A DNA stretch of 64,000 nucleotides, taken from the IMG/VR virus record IMGVR_UViG_3300022752_000021. One strand, written 5' to 3'. Positions 5,301 through 64,000 of this stretch are shown here, piece after piece. Made by a program: the position numbers and the translations under genes. The stretch is from a virus. Positions within the stretch are counted from its first letter, which is position 1; every line of letters begins with the position of its first letter. Under the pieces are notes generated by a model. It did no database searches and was not told where the DNA came from. It saw only the letters and a program-made list of their open reading frames with translations.

Positions 5301-7136
5301 TTATAGTGCTGTGCCACCACCGTATATGGTGAGGCTTAGATACTGGAAATTGTCGCTGAATGTCGAACCCATAACATCGTAGACCCTAACACCAAATGTA
5401 AGACCTTGAAGACTATATGGATTTGCCAAGAACATCTGTGTGGCACCAGATCCATTTTTAATCACAGTTGCTTCAACTATGTATTTTTCTTGATCTGCGG
5501 TTCCTAGTTCTGCCAACATATCATGGGTGAATTGATAATTCCCCTGCCCAAGTCTAGAAACAGTCCATGTTCCACTACCATAGGAGATGTCTACTGTACA
5601 ACCAGCACCAGATGATGCTCTTGCCCATCTCTTTGCAGTATTCTTTGCAATGATTGCTCCACCACCAGAAGGACCAAGGCGATAGATTTTCGCAACAGAG
5701 TCTTTTCTTGTTTTGATGATCCAAACAGCAACCATGTGTTGTGGAACATTTGTGTGTGCGCCGTTAGCACCAGCATTTGCAATGGTTCCATTAACAGTTG
5801 GAGTAAATCCAGTTGCGCTTATGTATATATTTCCATTGACTGTATGGCTGTGCGCTCCTGCCAGACCCAAATCTGTGCCACCAGGTTTATTTACATAAAC
5901 ATTGTGCTGACCAACACCTGAAGCAAAGGCTTTGTTAGATTCGACTGCTACATTCGGGTGTCTATGTCCATCTATTTGAGTTGTCACAAGATTGAATGTG
6001 ACACCGATTGGACCAGATGTACCAATAGACGCTGATAAAGTCAACCCGTGACTGTGAATTGGTATCTCATTTGTGGTGAGAGTATGTTCCTCTTCACCAC
6101 CAAATGTTCCAACTGTATAACTGTTGAATGCGGAATTCTCAAGACCCGTAATACCGCGAGAATCACCAATAATGAATCTTGCTCTCAAATCGGGTTTCTT
6201 GAATTCTGTTTTTGCTGGACTCACAACTTTATAAACTGAATCAATCCCTTCAAGACGAATGAGATCGTTATTTGCAAGTTGATTGTTGTGATGACTACCA
6301 GCAGATACGCCGTCTATGAATAGTGGATTGACAAATGCGCTAACACCCGTGACCTGTGTGCCAGATGCATTTGGTGTTCCCGTAAGGATTGTGCATTCTA
6401 TTTGCCCATCAATCCCTGCCTTAGATACAAAGAACTTTTTACCTATAACATTATCAGCATTAAGAGAGTCTACTCCCACTTGTTTGTTGAGAGTCATATT
6501 CTGAATAAATCCATACAACTGCCCATCATTGAGAGCAGCGTATAAATCGGAATATGTGGTGATATTTAAAAACCCGCCATCGCAGATAGACCAACCATCT
6601 GGAATATCCTGAGTTGTTCCTGCAAAAGCAAGAATGGAACCAACTGGTTGTATATCACTGATATCAACTGCCGAGTCTCCGACAATAACATCACCCGCTG
6701 TATTTACGACAACACCATCAATCTGATTTATTCCAGAACCATCGATGGTTGTACTGGAAATAATGATTACGGGTTTGATTACACTTCCTGGTGAAGTGGG
6801 TGGGGTTGTTGTTAACTTTCCTGCATTGGTGTCTGAAAGGTACAGTATATACGAACTGGTTGATCCACTAATTGTGGACATCAGAGAATCGGGTAATGAG
6901 ATTTCACCAGAATATACAATAGAAAAGTCTGTGGCATTTATGGATTCGATAACACCCAAGAAGTTTGAATTGGCTTGAGAATTTGCTTTTGCAAGCATGT
7001 ATAGATCGGTGGCAGGATCCCACCGAATCACATCTCCAACAGACAAAACATCGCCCGTAAGACCAGCATGGGTGATCTTATTTTTAACAGTTCTTGTATC
7101 GGCTAATGCTACTGGATCAAACGCGCTGCTGCCCAT
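5301..7136 (-). CDS. Tail fibre protein with phage tail-collar domain (gp12-like)
   Basis: Collar motifs PVGSILAFAG..IPDGWSICDG...Y.DLYAAL and PDLRARFIIG; GGEEEHTLT..EIPIHSH His motifs. Confidence 0.8.
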   Translation of the reverse strand: MGSSAFDPVALADTRTVKNKITHAGLTGDVLSVGDVIRWDPATDLYMLAKANSQANSNFLGVIESINATDFSIVYSGEISLPDSLMSTISGSTSSYILYLSDTNAGKLTTTPPTSPGSVIKPVIIISSTTIDGSGINQIDGVVVNTAGDVIVGDSAVDISDIQPVGSILAFAGTTQDIPDGWSICDGGFLNITTYSDLYAALNDGQLYGFIQNMTLNKQVGVDSLNADNVIGKKFFVSKAGIDGQIECTILTGTPNASGTQVTGVSAFVNPLFIDGVSAGSHHNNQLANNDLIRLEGIDSVYKVVSPAKTEFKKPDLRARFIIGDSRGITGLENSAFNSYTVGTFGGEEEHTLTTNEIPIHSHGLTLSASIGTSGPIGVTFNLVTTQIDGHRHPNVAVESNKAFASGVGQHNVYVNKPGGTDLGLAGAHSHTVNGNIYISATGFTPTVNGTIANAGANGAHTNVPQHMVAVWIIKTRKDSVAKIYRLGPSGGGAIIAKNTAKRWARASSGAGCTVDISYGSGTWTVSRLGQGNYQFTHDMLAELGTADQEKYIVEATVIKNGSGATQMFLANPYSLQGLTFGVRVYDVMGSTFSDNFQYLSLTIYGGGTAL

Positions 7137-41579: not shown

Positions 41580-41587
41580 TATAAATA
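41580..41587 (+). promoter_or_regulatory. T4 late promoter TATAAATA
   Basis: Exact consensus 23 nt upstream of the ATG at 41611. Confidence 0.8.
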
Positions 41588-41610: not shown

Positions 41611-42144
41611 ATGAAGTCGTATAGAGAGTTCATTTCAGAGGCAGCAAGCCGTTCCCTTTCCCGTCTACACGGTCATATTCAGAGTGGTCATATGGTGGGT
41701 TTCATCTCAGCAAGCCGTGGGAATCTTTCTCCTGCCGAGAATAATAAGAGGACGAAGGAACTCAGGACAAGCCTCAAGCAGCATGGATATAGTCCCATCC
41801 CTGTAAAGGGTGAGTACATCGAAGACCACAATGGAGAGAAGAAGAAGGTGAAGGAGAAGACCTTCATGATTCACTCTGGTCAACTACCCCTCCGCTCAAA
41901 GAAGGCAGTAGAAGATCATGCAACGCTTCTTAGTGATCTCAAGAAGCATGGGGAGAAGTATGGTCAGGACACTGTTCTCACCGTCTCCAAGAAGCATGGC
42001 AGCGTGTTCCATGGAACTGGCAAGTCTGATTGGGTTCCAAAGGGTAAGAGAGCGCGTATCGGTGGTGCTGGTATCAGTACCAATGTTGGTGACTTCAATA
42101 CACGATTGAAGCGCAAGAAGTTCATAGTAGGTGGAGGTGCTTAA
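41611..42144 (+). CDS. Putative internal head protein with capsid-targeting sequence
   Basis: N-terminus MKSYREFISEA; late promoter; ISASRG...EN..RT..L...L...GY..V.G.Y.E body conserved in T4-like phages. Confidence 0.75.
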   Translation: MKSYREFISEAASRSLSRLHGHIQSGHMVGFISASRGNLSPAENNKRTKELRTSLKQHGYSPIPVKGEYIEDHNGEKKKVKEKTFMIHSGQLPLRSKKAVEDHATLLSDLKKHGEKYGQDTVLTVSKKHGSVFHGTGKSDWVPKGKRARIGGAGISTNVGDFNTRLKRKKFIVGGGA

Positions 42145-60646: not shown

Positions 60647-60961
60647 ATGAAGTCATTCAATCAGTTTCTCACCGAAGCATCTTCCAATGAAAGATATGTG
60701 AAGATTAAGCAATCTGGTCATGGTGCGAATATTCGCAAGATCAATGACACTACATCCATGTTCTCACATCGTGGCATCGTCGGTCATGTGGTCAAGGGAT
60801 GGAGTCGCATGGGTGGTTGGGGATATCAGGTAGGGAACATTCGTGTGAATGGTAAGGACATTGGTCTAAATACCATACACGGAACTCATAAGACCATGAA
60901 TGATGCCATTCATAATGCATATTTGCATACGACACATCACATGGCAAAGGGAAATAAATGA
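60647..60961 (+). CDS. Putative internal head protein
   Basis: MKSFNQFLTEA N-terminus. Confidence 0.75.
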   Translation: MKSFNQFLTEASSNERYVKIKQSGHGANIRKINDTTSMFSHRGIVGHVVKGWSRMGGWGYQVGNIRVNGKDIGLNTIHGTHKTMNDAIHNAYLHTTHHMAKGNK

Positions 60962-61326
60962 AGTCATTCAATCGTTTCATCGCAGAGGCAAACGAGCAGA
61001 CGATTCAGAACTTTGTTGATTTTGCTGCACAGGAACTTGGTCTTGCAAATACACCAAATGTTCGTTTGGTTCAGGTGCGTGAAAACGGTATGACCACGGC
61101 ATCGTATTGTCCAGAGGACAAGAGCATTCGCGTTGTGAGTGGCAACAGAGCCACATTCGACATCTGCCGTTCTATTGCACACGAACTCGTCCATCAGATG
61201 CAGGATGAATGTGGTGATGAACTCGACGGAGACACAGGATCACCATGCGAGGACGAAGCAAATGCAATTGCTGGTCGTCTTATTCGGTTGTATGGCGGAA
61301 GCAACGAAGGCTTCTACGAGGAATAA
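60958..61326 (+). CDS. Putative internal head protein with zincin HExxH motif
   Basis: MKSFNRFIAEA; IAHELVHQMQ...EDEANA.AG. Confidence 0.75.
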   Translation: MKSFNRFIAEANEQTIQNFVDFAAQELGLANTPNVRLVQVRENGMTTASYCPEDKSIRVVSGNRATFDICRSIAHELVHQMQDECGDELDGDTGSPCEDEANAIAGRLIRLYGGSNEGFYEE

Positions 61327-61329
61327 GAC

Positions 61330-62364
61330 ATGAAGACTTACAGAGAGTTCATCACAGAAGCAACTACCGTTGTAAAAGCAAAGAAACCCCCTCTCTCCTA
61401 TGCTGACAAGTTCAAGAAGTTGCGCGGCAGTCTTGCCAAGAGCAGCGATATCACAGCACAGGTAGCATCTGGTGATCATGGATCATGGATTCTTACGGGA
61501 CACGATTCTGATAGTAGTCTATCATCAGAAACTATTCGCAAGGCAAAGGATAGAGTATTTGGTAAGCGACAGGGCGACAGTCAGATTCTGTTCTTCCATA
61601 GAACTCACGGCATCGTAACTCACCCAGCAATTGGTCAATTGACTCACCAAGATATTCATACGAATCCAAGGCACCTCAGTCATCATATAGATCAAAATGT
61701 TCGTGCGAAAGTCACTGGAATGGAGAAGGCTGACATAATTGGACAAGGAAGAATCGAACATCACAAGAATGGTGGTGGGATGATTTCCATTGTGGGACGC
61801 AACCATGAAGGTGATGAGGCACCACTTCATCCATCCGTGCTTAGAACTCTTCGCAGGGCATACCCAAAGCACTTCATTCATGATGGACATGGTAATGAAC
61901 TCCATGAGAACTGGTCGTATGCACACGACTTTCATGAGATGCCGAACTCAGAGAAGCAGAAGTATGTCTACCATGTGACTACAGCCGCAAGAGCCGCGAA
62001 GATCGTCAAGGGTGGACTCAAGCCACGAAGTCCGAAAGGACGCACCAACTATCCAAGCCAAAAGGAACACACGCAGGGACACGCATTCGTGACCAACCAT
62101 CATGGCGTGGGGTATTGGGTGGATCAGACAGCCCATGCAGTCAATCGCCGCAAGCGTGAGGTTGGTGAGCGCGACTACGAAAACATTCATGTTGTGAAGT
62201 TCCCAATCGCAAATCTCAGCAAGTCCGCACGAAGAAAGTTCAAGTCTGACGATCTTGGAACCAAGGACTCGCGAAAGCACAGCGACTATGCCCGTGATCC
62301 GATCATAGATCCCTCGACGCATGAAGCACCATCCGCATTCAAGGTCAAGAAGAAAATCCGTTGA
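61330..62364 (+). CDS. Putative internal head protein with C-terminal ADP-ribosyltransferase-like domain
   Basis: MKTYREFITEA; internal LHEN; YVYHVTT....KIVKGGLKP...AFVT resembles the H-x-T type ART fold. Confidence 0.65.
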   Translation: MKTYREFITEATTVVKAKKPPLSYADKFKKLRGSLAKSSDITAQVASGDHGSWILTGHDSDSSLSSETIRKAKDRVFGKRQGDSQILFFHRTHGIVTHPAIGQLTHQDIHTNPRHLSHHIDQNVRAKVTGMEKADIIGQGRIEHHKNGGGMISIVGRNHEGDEAPLHPSVLRTLRRAYPKHFIHDGHGNELHENWSYAHDFHEMPNSEKQKYVYHVTTAARAAKIVKGGLKPRSPKGRTNYPSQKEHTQGHAFVTNHHGVGYWVDQTAHAVNRRKREVGERDYENIHVVKFPIANLSKSARRKFKSDDLGTKDSRKHSDYARDPIIDPSTHEAPSAFKVKKKIR

Positions 62365-62468
62365 ACCCATCAATCCACATAGCATTGATGGATTGATAGG
62401 TGGATTCGATACTGCCGAATGGTGGTATATGTCGGAACACGAAGATAACTAATCCCAGTCAGACGCAC

Positions 62469-62501
62469 AGGTGGGGGACACAATCCCCCACCTTGTTTTT
62501 T
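62469..62501 (+). terminator. Rho-independent terminator
   Basis: AGGTGGGGGA-CACAA-TCCCCCACCT-TGTTTTTT. Confidence 0.85.
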
Positions 62502-62513
62502 CTAAATATCAGT

Positions 62514-64000
62514 ATGAAAACAATACACATAGTTCCCATTGATGAAGCAAGCAAGCCCAAGCCATCTGGCAAGGCATTCCTCCTTCCTGGCTCCTACAGC
62601 CCATACACCATTGGACACCATGAGATGGCAAGGCAAGCCGCTGCACATGCTGCCTCGACGGGTCATACGCACTTCTACCATGGCATCGGTGCCGCATCGA
62701 AGCAATCGGCAGATGATCCGTTGACGCATGGACAAAAGCGTTCCGTCATTCGTTCTGGTCACAGGGACATTGCCAAGGAACACAAGGGAATGCAGTTTCA
62801 TACGACTGAAAAGGAACATGTGAGTCCATTCCATCAAGTGGCACATCTCGCAAGACAGGGACACAAGCACATCACCATCGGTCTTGGATCAGATCAGATG
62901 AAAGAAGGTGGTGTCAAGACCGCAATAGAGAGGCATGTGAAAAAGTACGGTGGAATATTGGACAAGGATGGCAAGGTTCACAAGGCAACGGTGAGTTTCC
63001 ATCAGATGGGTGCGGAGAGGCATGAAGGAGACATGCCAAGGCACGAAGTCCTTGCAAGGCTTCGCAAGGGAGACATGAGCGTGGCAAAGGCAGGACGGCT
63101 TCGCAAGGCAGTTGCATCTGGCGACACAGAACTCGCGCATGAACTCATGCCAAAACACATCAACAAGCCGAAGTACTTCAGCCTGATAAAGAAGCAACAG
63201 GCACGGGTAGCAAAGCCAAAGAAGAAGGCACTCGTCAAGGAAGGATGCATGTCGTTCCTTGATTTCATTGGGGAGGACATCGAACTCACCCATTCTATTG
63301 GGCGAAATACGGTAGAACCAACAAAACATTTTGGTTCCGAATACCTAAAGAAAAAAGAAGCAACCACATTTGGTGGCAATCAAAAGTTTCTCCACCACAA
63401 AAATCTTGGCGAGTTTCATCCCAATTATGAACTCCATAGGCATTCATATGAAGAACGAACTCCCACACGCGATGGTGTGGGGAAAAGACATATTCATGAT
63501 TACAGCATAGTACACAAGCCATCCAACACGGTTGTTGGCGGATTTGTTGGAAATGGTGGTAAGGTATCACGAAAGAGTGGATTCAAAGAGGGTAAGGGAG
63601 ATGATGTAAGCATCATCAACCTTCATATTCACCCAACACATTCCAAGAAGAAGATTGGTGCATCTCTACCAATTCAGGCATACAAGCACTTGCATAAACT
63701 AGGACACTCCGTTGAGAGTGGTTCATTGCAGTCGCCTGGTGGAGCGCATGTTTGGAATACATTGCGTAAAGATCCTGAAGTCAAGAAGCATGTGCGATAT
63801 CATGATCCATTTGAAGGAAGATCATATGCTGCACACAAACTCCCGACAGGGGAGATATGGCAAGACGAACAGGATGATAGAACATTGATTCTACATCGTA
63901 AGCCAAAGAAGAAGGCACTCGTCGCTGAAAGATACATGTCGTTTCTTGATTTCATTGGGGAGGACATCGAACTCATTCCCGTACATCGTGATACGCATGT
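62514..64000 (+). CDS. Multidomain putative head-packaged polyprotein (cytidylyltransferase-like + GNAT-like + further domain), 3'-truncated
   Basis: Manual translation is open from ATG 62514 to the window end; TCTAAATA upstream; GSYSPYTIGH (HIGH-like), DPLT..QK, IGLGSDQ; second domain IHPTHSKKKIGASL...SGSLQSPGGAHVW. Confidence 0.8.
   Translation, partial: MKTIHIVPIDEASKPKPSGKAFLLPGSYSPYTIGHHEMARQAAAHAASTGHTHFYHGIGAASKQSADDPLTHGQKRSVIRSGHRDIAKEHKGMQFHTTEKEHVSPFHQVAHLARQGHKHITIGLGSDQMKEGGVKTAIERHVKKYGGILDKDGKVHKATVSFHQMGAERHEGDMPRHEVLARLRKGDMSVAKAGRLRKAVASGDTELAHELMPKHINKPKYFSLIKKQQARVAKPKKKALVKEGCMSFLDFIGEDIELTHSIGRNTVEPTKHFGSEYLKKKEATTFGGNQKFLHHKNLGEFHPNYELHRHSYEERTPTRDGVGKRHIHDYSIVHKPSNTVVGGFVGNGGKVSRKSGFKEGKGDDVSIINLHIHPTHSKKKIGASLPIQAYKHLHKLGHSVESGSLQSPGGAHVWNTLRKDPEVKKHVRYHDPFEGRSYAAHKLPTGEIWQDEQDDRTLILHRKPKKKALVAERYMSFLDFIGEDIELIPVHRDTH
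63213..63288 (+). repeat. 76-bp in-frame linker repeat, copy 1 (copy 2 at 63900-63975)
   Basis: Encodes KPKKKALV(K/A)E(GC/RY)MSFLDFIGEDIEL; 70/76 identical by manual count. Confidence 0.92.
63900..63975 (+). repeat. 76-bp in-frame linker repeat, copy 2
   Basis: See 63213-63288. Confidence 0.92.

Follow-up and report, generated by a model that had tools for sequence, protein, structure and literature searches.

Can the capsid-targeting sequence (CTS) of T4-like phages, familiar as a tag that occurs once, at the N-terminus, and exploited by engineers to bring foreign proteins into heads, also recur inside a gene as the joint between enzymes that are packaged as a chain and then cut apart? The question is raised by the end of a 64,000-nucleotide stretch of viral DNA, IMG/VR record IMGVR_UViG_3300022752_000021, which we call the window and whose positions serve as coordinates throughout. 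An open reading frame (ORF) begins there at ATG 62514 (first letters MKTIHIVPIDEA). The original prediction took it to run past the window end as the gene of an effector polyprotein, and the frame is indeed open to the last letter, for 495 uninterrupted codons. This 5' part of the gene (62514-64000, on the plus strand, as are all window features below unless stated) reads as a module CT, a long linker, a GNAT-like module A, a second long linker and the start of a GNAT-like module B. Homologs differ in the number and order of such modules, and the exchanges fall at linkers that end in a putative prohead protease site and, in their long form, hold a peptide resembling the CTS. We refer to the product of the window ORF as P0001; other P numbers denote protein cluster representatives, and L numbers denote loci.

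The linkers carry much of the argument. They had been described as encoded by a 76-bp repeat, and the window does hold one 76-nucleotide direct repeat, 63213-63288 against 63900-63975, identical at 70 of 76 positions and spelling the same linker twice. Aligned together with the single copy of a relative, L001, the shared block is sharply bounded; between the window copies one part is identical at 24/24 positions and another at 38/39. The flanks are unrelated, being the end of CT or of module A upstream and the start of module A, B or C downstream. Copy 1 reads KPKKKALVKE↓GCMSFLDFIGE↓DIEL (arrows mark candidate cuts here and below), with a CTS-like decapeptide at 63246-63275 and candidate cut sites after E243 (63240-63242) and E254 (63273-63275). 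Copy 2 reads KPKKKALVAE↓RYMSFLDFIGE↓DIEL, with the decapeptide at 63933-63962 and candidate cut sites after E472 and E483 (63960-63962). Across homologs this long form follows the pattern ...(L/V)-x-x-E↓(G/R)-x-(M/V/L/I)-S-F-x-(E/D)-(F/Y)-(I/V)-x-E↓..., with two aliphatic-x-Glu sites, one on each side of the decapeptide, and there is also a short form, ...KKK-x-V-x-E↓DIE.... A run of Lys and Arg lies ahead of the junction site. When module starts are recognised by anchors such as DIEL-IPV, DIEI-ANV or APEL-DPY, a Glu stands directly before the anchor in 190/190 cases. The aliphatic position (P3) of 90 distinct junctions is Val in 61, Ile in 26 and Met in 3, and the position after it (P2) is variable (K, S, T, A, G, R, N, P).

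T4 gp21 cleaves after I/LxE and, less readily, after xxE (PMC12991175), a specificity that the aliphatic-x-Glu of the junctions fits. A site of this type also closes a putative N-terminal propeptide, MKTIHIVPIDE↓A (62514-62546), with an I-D-E site, which is disordered in the structure model. Among CT N-termini, E11 is invariant and A12 nearly so, aliphatic-x-E↓(A/S/E) is found at residues 7-11 in 25/25 distinct variants, and the site is retained even where CT lies internally behind another module, X (KITE↓A, TVNE↓E). Inside the modules such sites are rarer than expected. In 33 non-redundant module interiors we count 78 occurrences of [VILM]xE against 108 expected (z -3.4; none of 500 shuffles was as low); the control [VILM]xD shows no depletion (z -0.4). 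This is the pattern that selection against stray cuts would give, although the test is soft because the modules are paralogous.

The decapeptide of the long linker had been proposed to be an internal copy of the CTS, and at the level of sequence this identification is well supported. The T4 CTS is MKTYQEFIAE (PMC8442874); its targeting depends on residues 4 and 7, its processing on residues 8 and 10 (PMC9026906). Aligned from its C-terminal Glu, (C/Y)MSFLDFIGE places F, F, I and E at positions 4, 7, 8 and 10; in other clades the decapeptide reads FVSFGEFIAE and has EFIAE in common with T4. A position matrix was derived from 14 CTSs found at N-termini in this lineage; the T4 CTS, held out, scores 20.1. 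Internal peptides give the top matrix score in every polyprotein tested: 11.6 for both window copies, 16.1 in P0063, 24.6 in P0071 and 21.5 in P0090. When P0001 is shuffled, the best score per shuffle is 2.6 at the median, 12.6 at the 99th percentile and 18.3 at most. In relatives these modules also occur as genes of their own, led by a true N-terminal CTS that ends in the junction Glu, as in L001 6023-6709 (MKTYRQLLE↓DIQLE), P0060 (MKTFQQFKE↓DIELI) and P0083 (MKSFVEFVAE↓S). The N-terminus of the polyprotein itself, MKTIHIVPIDE, fits a CTS in part only, with aliphatic instead of aromatic residues.

How freely are the modules exchanged? A 5.8-billion-protein collection, searched twice, yielded about 100 cluster representatives, and eight loci came from IMG/VR; proteins were cut at their junctions and the pieces typed by BLAST against reference modules. 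The types are CT, S (about 65 residues), the GNAT paralogs A, B, C and D, and X, an extra N-terminal module of about 390 residues. At least 24 module orders or numbers occur among the roughly 100 homologs, always exchanged at linkers, with up to six modules in one ORF and module C final in every protein that appears full-length. Arrangements that begin with CT and include A are CT-A-C, CT-A-B-C, CT-A-D-C, CT-A-D-B-C and CT-D-A-C; those without A are CT-C, CT-B-C, CT-D-C, CT-D-B-C, CT-B-D-C, CT-D-B-D-C and CT-D-B-D-C-C. Module S appears in CT-S-C, CT-S-D-C, CT-S-B-C, CT-S-D-B-C and CT-S-B-D-C, module X in X-CT-B-C and X-CT-B-D-C, and CT is missing from A-C, A-D-C, A-D-B-C, D-C and B-C. Several arrangements are found in proteins that match the window at 94-99% identity in the modules they have in common with it, which indicates that the exchanges are recent. 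The window gene is CT-A-B and onward, with the long linker at its A-B junction, where P0068/69 (CT-A-B-C, 922 residues) have the short form. A modular cassette with domains added or swapped is what the original prediction had envisaged, and the homologs, whose architecture is not fixed, establish by comparison of their sequences that modules are shuffled at the linkers.

Two further observations concern the outer reaches of this family. In P0083 and P0093, residues 1-390 form the extra module before CT; it starts with its own CTS (MKSFVEFVAE↓S or MKPFIEFLEE↓E) and matches no Pfam family. More distant proteins (P0052-P0057, P0094-P0099, L009 5965-8784 and L010 5998-9192; 370-1100 residues in total) have the same CT domain fused to long unrelated regions without linkers of the DIEL or APEL type; Pfam, where applied, places an HNH_3 endonuclease motif at their end.

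The linkers were expected to lie at domain boundaries, and in an AlphaFold2 model that covers all 495 residues and draws on 32 homologs (mean predicted local distance difference test score, pLDDT, 73.6) they lie exactly there. The model consists of two folded bodies, at about residues 16-234 and 268-465, and pLDDT below 50 is limited to residues 1-15, 235-267, 453-456 and 466-492, which are the N-terminus, both linkers (235-267 and 466-492) and the short stretch at 453-456. The first body, CT (62559-63215), is a predicted nucleotidyltransferase of NMNAT/PPAT fold. Its model matches the M. jannaschii NMNAT 1f9a (VIA Z 13.1, root-mean-square deviation 2.9, 157/164 residues) and the PPAT 4nah (VIA Z 12.3), and Foldseek retrieves NMN and phosphopantetheine adenylyltransferases with a probability of 1.00 and a target TM of up to 0.74. 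By sequence CT matches phrog_395, 'cytidyltransferase' (1.2e-9), and, weakly, Pfam CTP_transf_like (15.4 against a cut-off of 21). A HIGH-type nucleotidyltransferase-like domain had been proposed here; the fold assignment stands, but the motif is TxGH (PYTIGH, with T32, G34 and H35 invariant) and not HIGH. A conserved SVAKAGRLRKA could be the C-terminal second motif of SxxxxR type.

The second body, module A (63276-63908, residues 255-465), had been called GNAT-like, and both its paralogs and its model agree. Module A shares 48% identity with the paralogous module D and, over the core, 44% with module C. Pfam finds no match in module A alone, and modules of homologs pass the Pfam GNAT cut-offs (D with 33.3 against 20.7 bits, B with 25.1 against 23.6). 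Modelled alone (pLDDT 81, predicted TM-score 0.81), module A retrieves almost only GNAT acetyltransferases, with weak matches (Foldseek E 2.6e-3, VIA Z 5.3-7.7), and a profile of the GNAT-like modules found nothing among PDB sequences. Ten modules align as members of a single paralogous family and share a His-rich stretch that resembles motif A, HPxHxxKK(I/V)GxSL; compared with the GNAT acetyl-CoA motif A (Q/R-x-x-G-x-G/A), it keeps an invariant Gly but has K at the first position and S at the last. The third domain of the original prediction is another GNAT paralog, type B, which is cut off by the window end (63963-64000); its start (DIELIPVHRDTH..., DIELIPVH...) is that of the B modules of P0012, P0063 and P0068. 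We take the GNAT modules to be putative acetyltransferases. The earlier picture of separate host-modifying enzymes has to be revised to this extent, that the modules are mostly paralogs of a single GNAT-like module rather than unrelated enzymes.

A protease of the gp21 type is present in the lineage, as far as homology can tell. A relative, G003, is a 156.6-kb IMG/VR contig that includes L005 and carries a syntenic CT-B-C gene whose CT is 70% identical to that of the window. It encodes a gp21-family protease (Peptidase_S77, PF03420; E 3.3e-39) that adjoins an acidic scaffold-like gene and a gp23 homolog (E 1e-136). The protease (L011 1357-2004, minus strand) begins MLLITE...TIAE↓D, and the gp23 homolog (L012 1459-2931, minus strand) carries ...ALRE↓AAAP at about residue 48, so that each of the two proteins has a candidate maturation site of aliphatic-x-Glu type. 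That of the gp23 homolog presumably recalls the removal of the T4 gp23 propeptide and is a lead only. The N-terminus of the protease is reminiscent of the T4 gp21 self-cleavage site, LIE-9 (PMC9026906). The 81-kb and 93-kb fragments on which L001 and L002 lie gave no PF03420 match, but they are only 36% and 53% complete, and the negative carries no weight.

Taken together, we favor a model in which this cargo-locus gene would encode a chain of enzymes, an NMNAT/PPAT-fold nucleotidyltransferase followed by GNAT-like acetyltransferase modules, in which each joint is a disordered basic stretch ending in aliphatic-x-Glu and the long form adds a CTS-equivalent decapeptide that ends in the same way. 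The N-terminal propeptide and the internal targeting peptides would attach the chain to the prohead's scaffolding core. The gp21-family prohead protease would then cut after the junction glutamates and free the modules, releasing an 11-residue peptide as well wherever the linker is long, and the freed enzymes would be injected together with the DNA. The near-identical linker DNA would meanwhile serve as a recombination site for the gain, loss and reordering of modules. We regard this full sequence of packaging, cutting, injection and linker-based shuffling as somewhat probable, with prohead loading, junction cutting, injection and the activities and targets of the enzymes being its conjectural steps. 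On a bolder reading, that T4-like phages of this lineage have turned a CTS and a protease site into a portable linker cassette, such that whatever enzyme modules it flanks are loaded as a chain, released and injected while homologous recombination at the cassette continually re-deals the set, we find the arguments evenly balanced. Such a cassette would be a protein-level counterpart of the cassette exchange of polymorphic toxins.

Several findings weigh against this model. Measured against shuffles, the window's own internal peptide reaches only about the 98th percentile. Inside modules the reversed control motif, too, shows some depletion (z -1.8), and the 33 modules of that test, being paralogs, are non-independent. 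The acetyl-CoA motif of the GNAT modules is degenerate (KKIGAS) and their fold matches are modest (Z 5.3-7.7). The gp21-family protease was found in the relative G003 and not in this window, and the polyprotein gene starts without a Shine-Dalgarno sequence, directly behind a terminator. Finally, P3 of the junctions is mostly Val, and canonical T4 sites have Ile or Leu. This last point also counts toward a different explanation, that the protein is packaged but stays essentially uncut as a multidomain ('polyvalent') cargo. Its linkers would then be flexible basic tethers, its internal targeting-like peptides relics of gene fusion or extra scaffold-binding sites, and at most the N-terminal propeptide would be removed. 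Some polyvalent virion proteins, such as the N4 virion RNA polymerase, are packaged unprocessed (PMC5512222), and paralogous modules might act as one tandem array. If the linkers were only tethers, however, their short form would not be expected to retain aliphatic-x-Glu where the modules are about 40-60% identical and P2 varies freely, nor would [VILM]xE be depleted inside modules. Free-standing single-module versions exist too, and imply that modules can function alone. We consider an uncut cargo unlikely.

It is also conceivable that the product is not packaged at all, and that these are cytoplasmic enzymes, for example of NAD- or CoA-related metabolism and of acetylation, joined by ordinary spacers whose likeness to a CTS is incidental or vestigial. 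Enzymes of the NMNAT/PPAT fold are usually metabolic, and the packaging of the polyprotein is itself inferred. The source is an uncultured T4-like myovirus: minus-strand genes at 7-28 kb match PHROG families of the T4 baseplate hub/lysozyme (gp5), wedge, tail-tube cap and tail fibre, with the baseplate genes falling in the families of T4 gp5, gp6 and gp48. The wedge protein is less than 30% identical to that of any cultured phage, the nearest being rhizobial, cyanobacterial and pelagibacter T4-like myoviruses, and in INPHARED neither the locus (megablast) nor P0001 and P0052 (tblastn) gave a match, so that no cultured relative was found. An exact-DNA search of viral and metagenome contigs for the continuation of the window found none. 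Directly upstream of the polyprotein gene lie three adjacent genes with T4-type N-terminal CTSs (60647-62364; repeat family D2), beginning MKSFNQFLTE↓A, MKSFNRFIAE↓A and MKTYREFITE↓A; together with a fourth at 41611 (MKSYREFISE↓A) they follow the pattern MK(S/T)(F/Y)xxF(I/L)xE↓A. Because the N-termini of these neighbors are like the T4 CTS, we place the polyprotein gene in a cargo locus of the internal-protein type. Three observations speak against an unpackaged product: in every relative examined the gene lies within a block of CTS-bearing genes, the N-terminal aliphatic-x-E↓A is kept in 25/25 variants, and the modules recur behind canonical CTSs. An unpackaged role for the protein is, in our view, improbable.

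The cargo locus has features of its own. Among close relatives it is mosaic (L001 6023-6709 and 7078-7884 compared with 60647-62364 in the window): L001 has an extra free-standing GNAT-like gene placed between CTS genes, and its MKTYREFI(T/V)E gene encodes 268 residues compared with 344 in the window, with differing internal parts. The window gene at 60958-61326 encodes a 122-residue CTS protein (MKSFNRFIAE↓A) with a HExxH-type motif, HELVHQMQDE, and weak Pfam matches to metallopeptidases of M78/reprolysin-like type, and may represent a small zincin that is packaged.

A further possibility is that translation starts inside the long linker (AAGGAAGGA, then ATG 63249) and that the gene yields nested, CTS-headed proteins with no need for cleavage. 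An AAGGA precedes ATG 63249 by 7 nucleotides, a distance in the range that real starts nearby show; the main ATG has no Shine-Dalgarno; and P0049, known from the protein alone, begins exactly at the linker Met (MSFLDF). Yet the linker Met is Val, Leu or Ile in other clades, with an ATC codon in L008, the second linker copy has just GAAAGA upstream, a poor Shine-Dalgarno, short linkers have no Met whatsoever, and the purine run AAGGAAGG is accounted for by conserved K-E-G codons. Since the linker Met is not conserved, we rule out internal initiation as the principal explanation. As a minor one, which could coexist with cleavage, it strikes us as very improbable. That the repeat is an assembly chimera, misjoining reads of different strains or genes, is scarcely credible, in spite of the metagenomic origin of the data and the near-identical 24-39-nucleotide blocks common to junctions, because many independent contigs and sources carry these architectures (P0063 has 18 member sequences; L001 and L002 come from two IMG/VR contigs), and moreover the exact shared blocks are shorter than sequencing reads and the reading frame is intact across every junction.

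The start of the gene has an unusual arrangement. A strong intrinsic-terminator-like hairpin and T-tract (62469-62500; hairpin proper 62469-62493, a 10-bp stem with 7 GC pairs followed by the T-tract) lies directly 5' of the gene, between a small ORF at 62321-62452 and the polyprotein gene. Next comes a late-promoter-like CTAAATA (62502-62508), and the ATG is 5 nucleotides further on, with no Shine-Dalgarno in between, whereas most neighboring genes have one. Both the hairpin and CTAAATA are kept in L001 and L005. In L005 (about 5950-5985) the stem letters are GGAGAGG/CCTCTCC in place of GGTGGGGGA/TCCCCCACC in the window, and the preservation of the same hairpin with changed letters suggests a conserved RNA or terminator structure. 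The motif TCTAAATA, noted earlier as late-promoter-like, is thus real and conserved, but its role as a promoter is doubtful because it stands 5 nucleotides before the ATG; a late promoter here, which would yield a leaderless or near-leaderless mRNA, is plausible but uncertain. We rejected a canonical T4 late promoter, as the gene has CTAAATA only and the single perfect TATAAATA in the 64-kb window is at chance level. That sole perfect copy precedes the CTS-bearing gene at 41611 (MKSYREFISEA). Elsewhere, (A/C)TAAATA motifs at 41580-41587, 58398 and 58877 lie 20-23 nucleotides before the ORF starts at 41611, 58425 and 58906, with a Shine-Dalgarno between motif and start in each case, and are candidate late promoters of this phage. 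A GTG start at 62400, used in the gene calls P0008 and P0011, was also rejected, given that the terminator sits upstream of 62514 and that the N-terminus conserved across clades begins at the ATG. The small ORF itself (62321-62452, 43 residues, ...IDGLIGGFDTAEWWYMSEHEDN) overlaps the upstream gene at its end and has a core, DGLIGGFDxxE(W/H)W, that is kept in L001, L005, L007 and L008 with changes mostly at third codon positions, and for that reason it is probably a real small gene; in L007 its counterpart overlaps the polyprotein start.

How does the proposed chain compare with what is known? The closest parallel is the internal proteins of T4 (IPI, IPII and IPIII) together with Alt. Here too the phage is T4-like and the neighboring genes have near-canonical CTSs, the junction peptide agrees with CTS positions 4, 7, 8 and 10, junctions end in aliphatic-x-Glu like gp21 sites, and the cargo, like Alt, looks like host-modifying enzymes. 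Internal proteins of T-even phages are diverse, with the CTS alone conserved (PMC3012670), and each T4 cargo protein has a separate gene and a single N-terminal CTS, the internal proteins being cut once (PMC8442874). In contrast, up to six modules share one ORF here, with tag and site recurring internally as linkers, P3 is mostly Val, and the NMNAT/PPAT-fold and GNAT domains are not those of T4 cargo. The polyvalent proteins (PMC5512222) are alike in that they combine several effector-type domains, GNATs among them, in one polypeptide, with a late or virion gene context, highly variable architecture and a proposed release of domains by proteolysis. The present family likewise joins disparate effector domains (CT and GNAT modules) in at least 24 architectures within a phage cargo neighborhood. 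For polyvalent proteins, release has been proposed to occur through embedded peptidase domains such as a zincin metallopeptidase, and the Alt-family ADP-ribosyltransferases of T4-like phages are stated not to be in genuine polyvalent proteins (PMC5512222). Pfam finds no peptidase family in P0002, P0003, P0049, P0060, P0063 or P0083; the junctions carry instead the motif of a trans-acting prohead protease and a capsid-targeting peptide. In the giant phages phiKZ and SPN3US, a gp21-related protease cuts head and ejection proteins after Glu at short motifs, often at multiple sites of one protein, and the propeptides are believed to direct proteins into the prohead (PMC5694885). Their extra cuts, however, lie within long N-terminal propeptides rather than in repeated linkers between interchangeable enzymes, and no shuffling at cut sites is described for them (PMC5694885). 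We found no paper on linkers with an internal CTS and cut site between exchangeable modules in a limited literature search, which is weak evidence of novelty.

Why would a phage organize its cargo in this way? If our model is true, this gene would be a natural case of a targeting tag and a cut site that recur within one gene as the joint of interchangeable enzymes, and phages could enlarge and re-deal their injected arsenal without added genes or promoters. It would extend the polyvalent-protein idea to T4-like phages, with release by a trans-acting maturation protease and not by an embedded peptidase. The junctions would also provide a clear set of sites for testing the specificity of gp21-family proteases beyond T4, and a ready-made design for placing several proteins at a fixed ratio in T4-type capsids. 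For the biology of these phages, the finding would point to nucleotidyltransferase and acetyltransferase activities delivered from the head.

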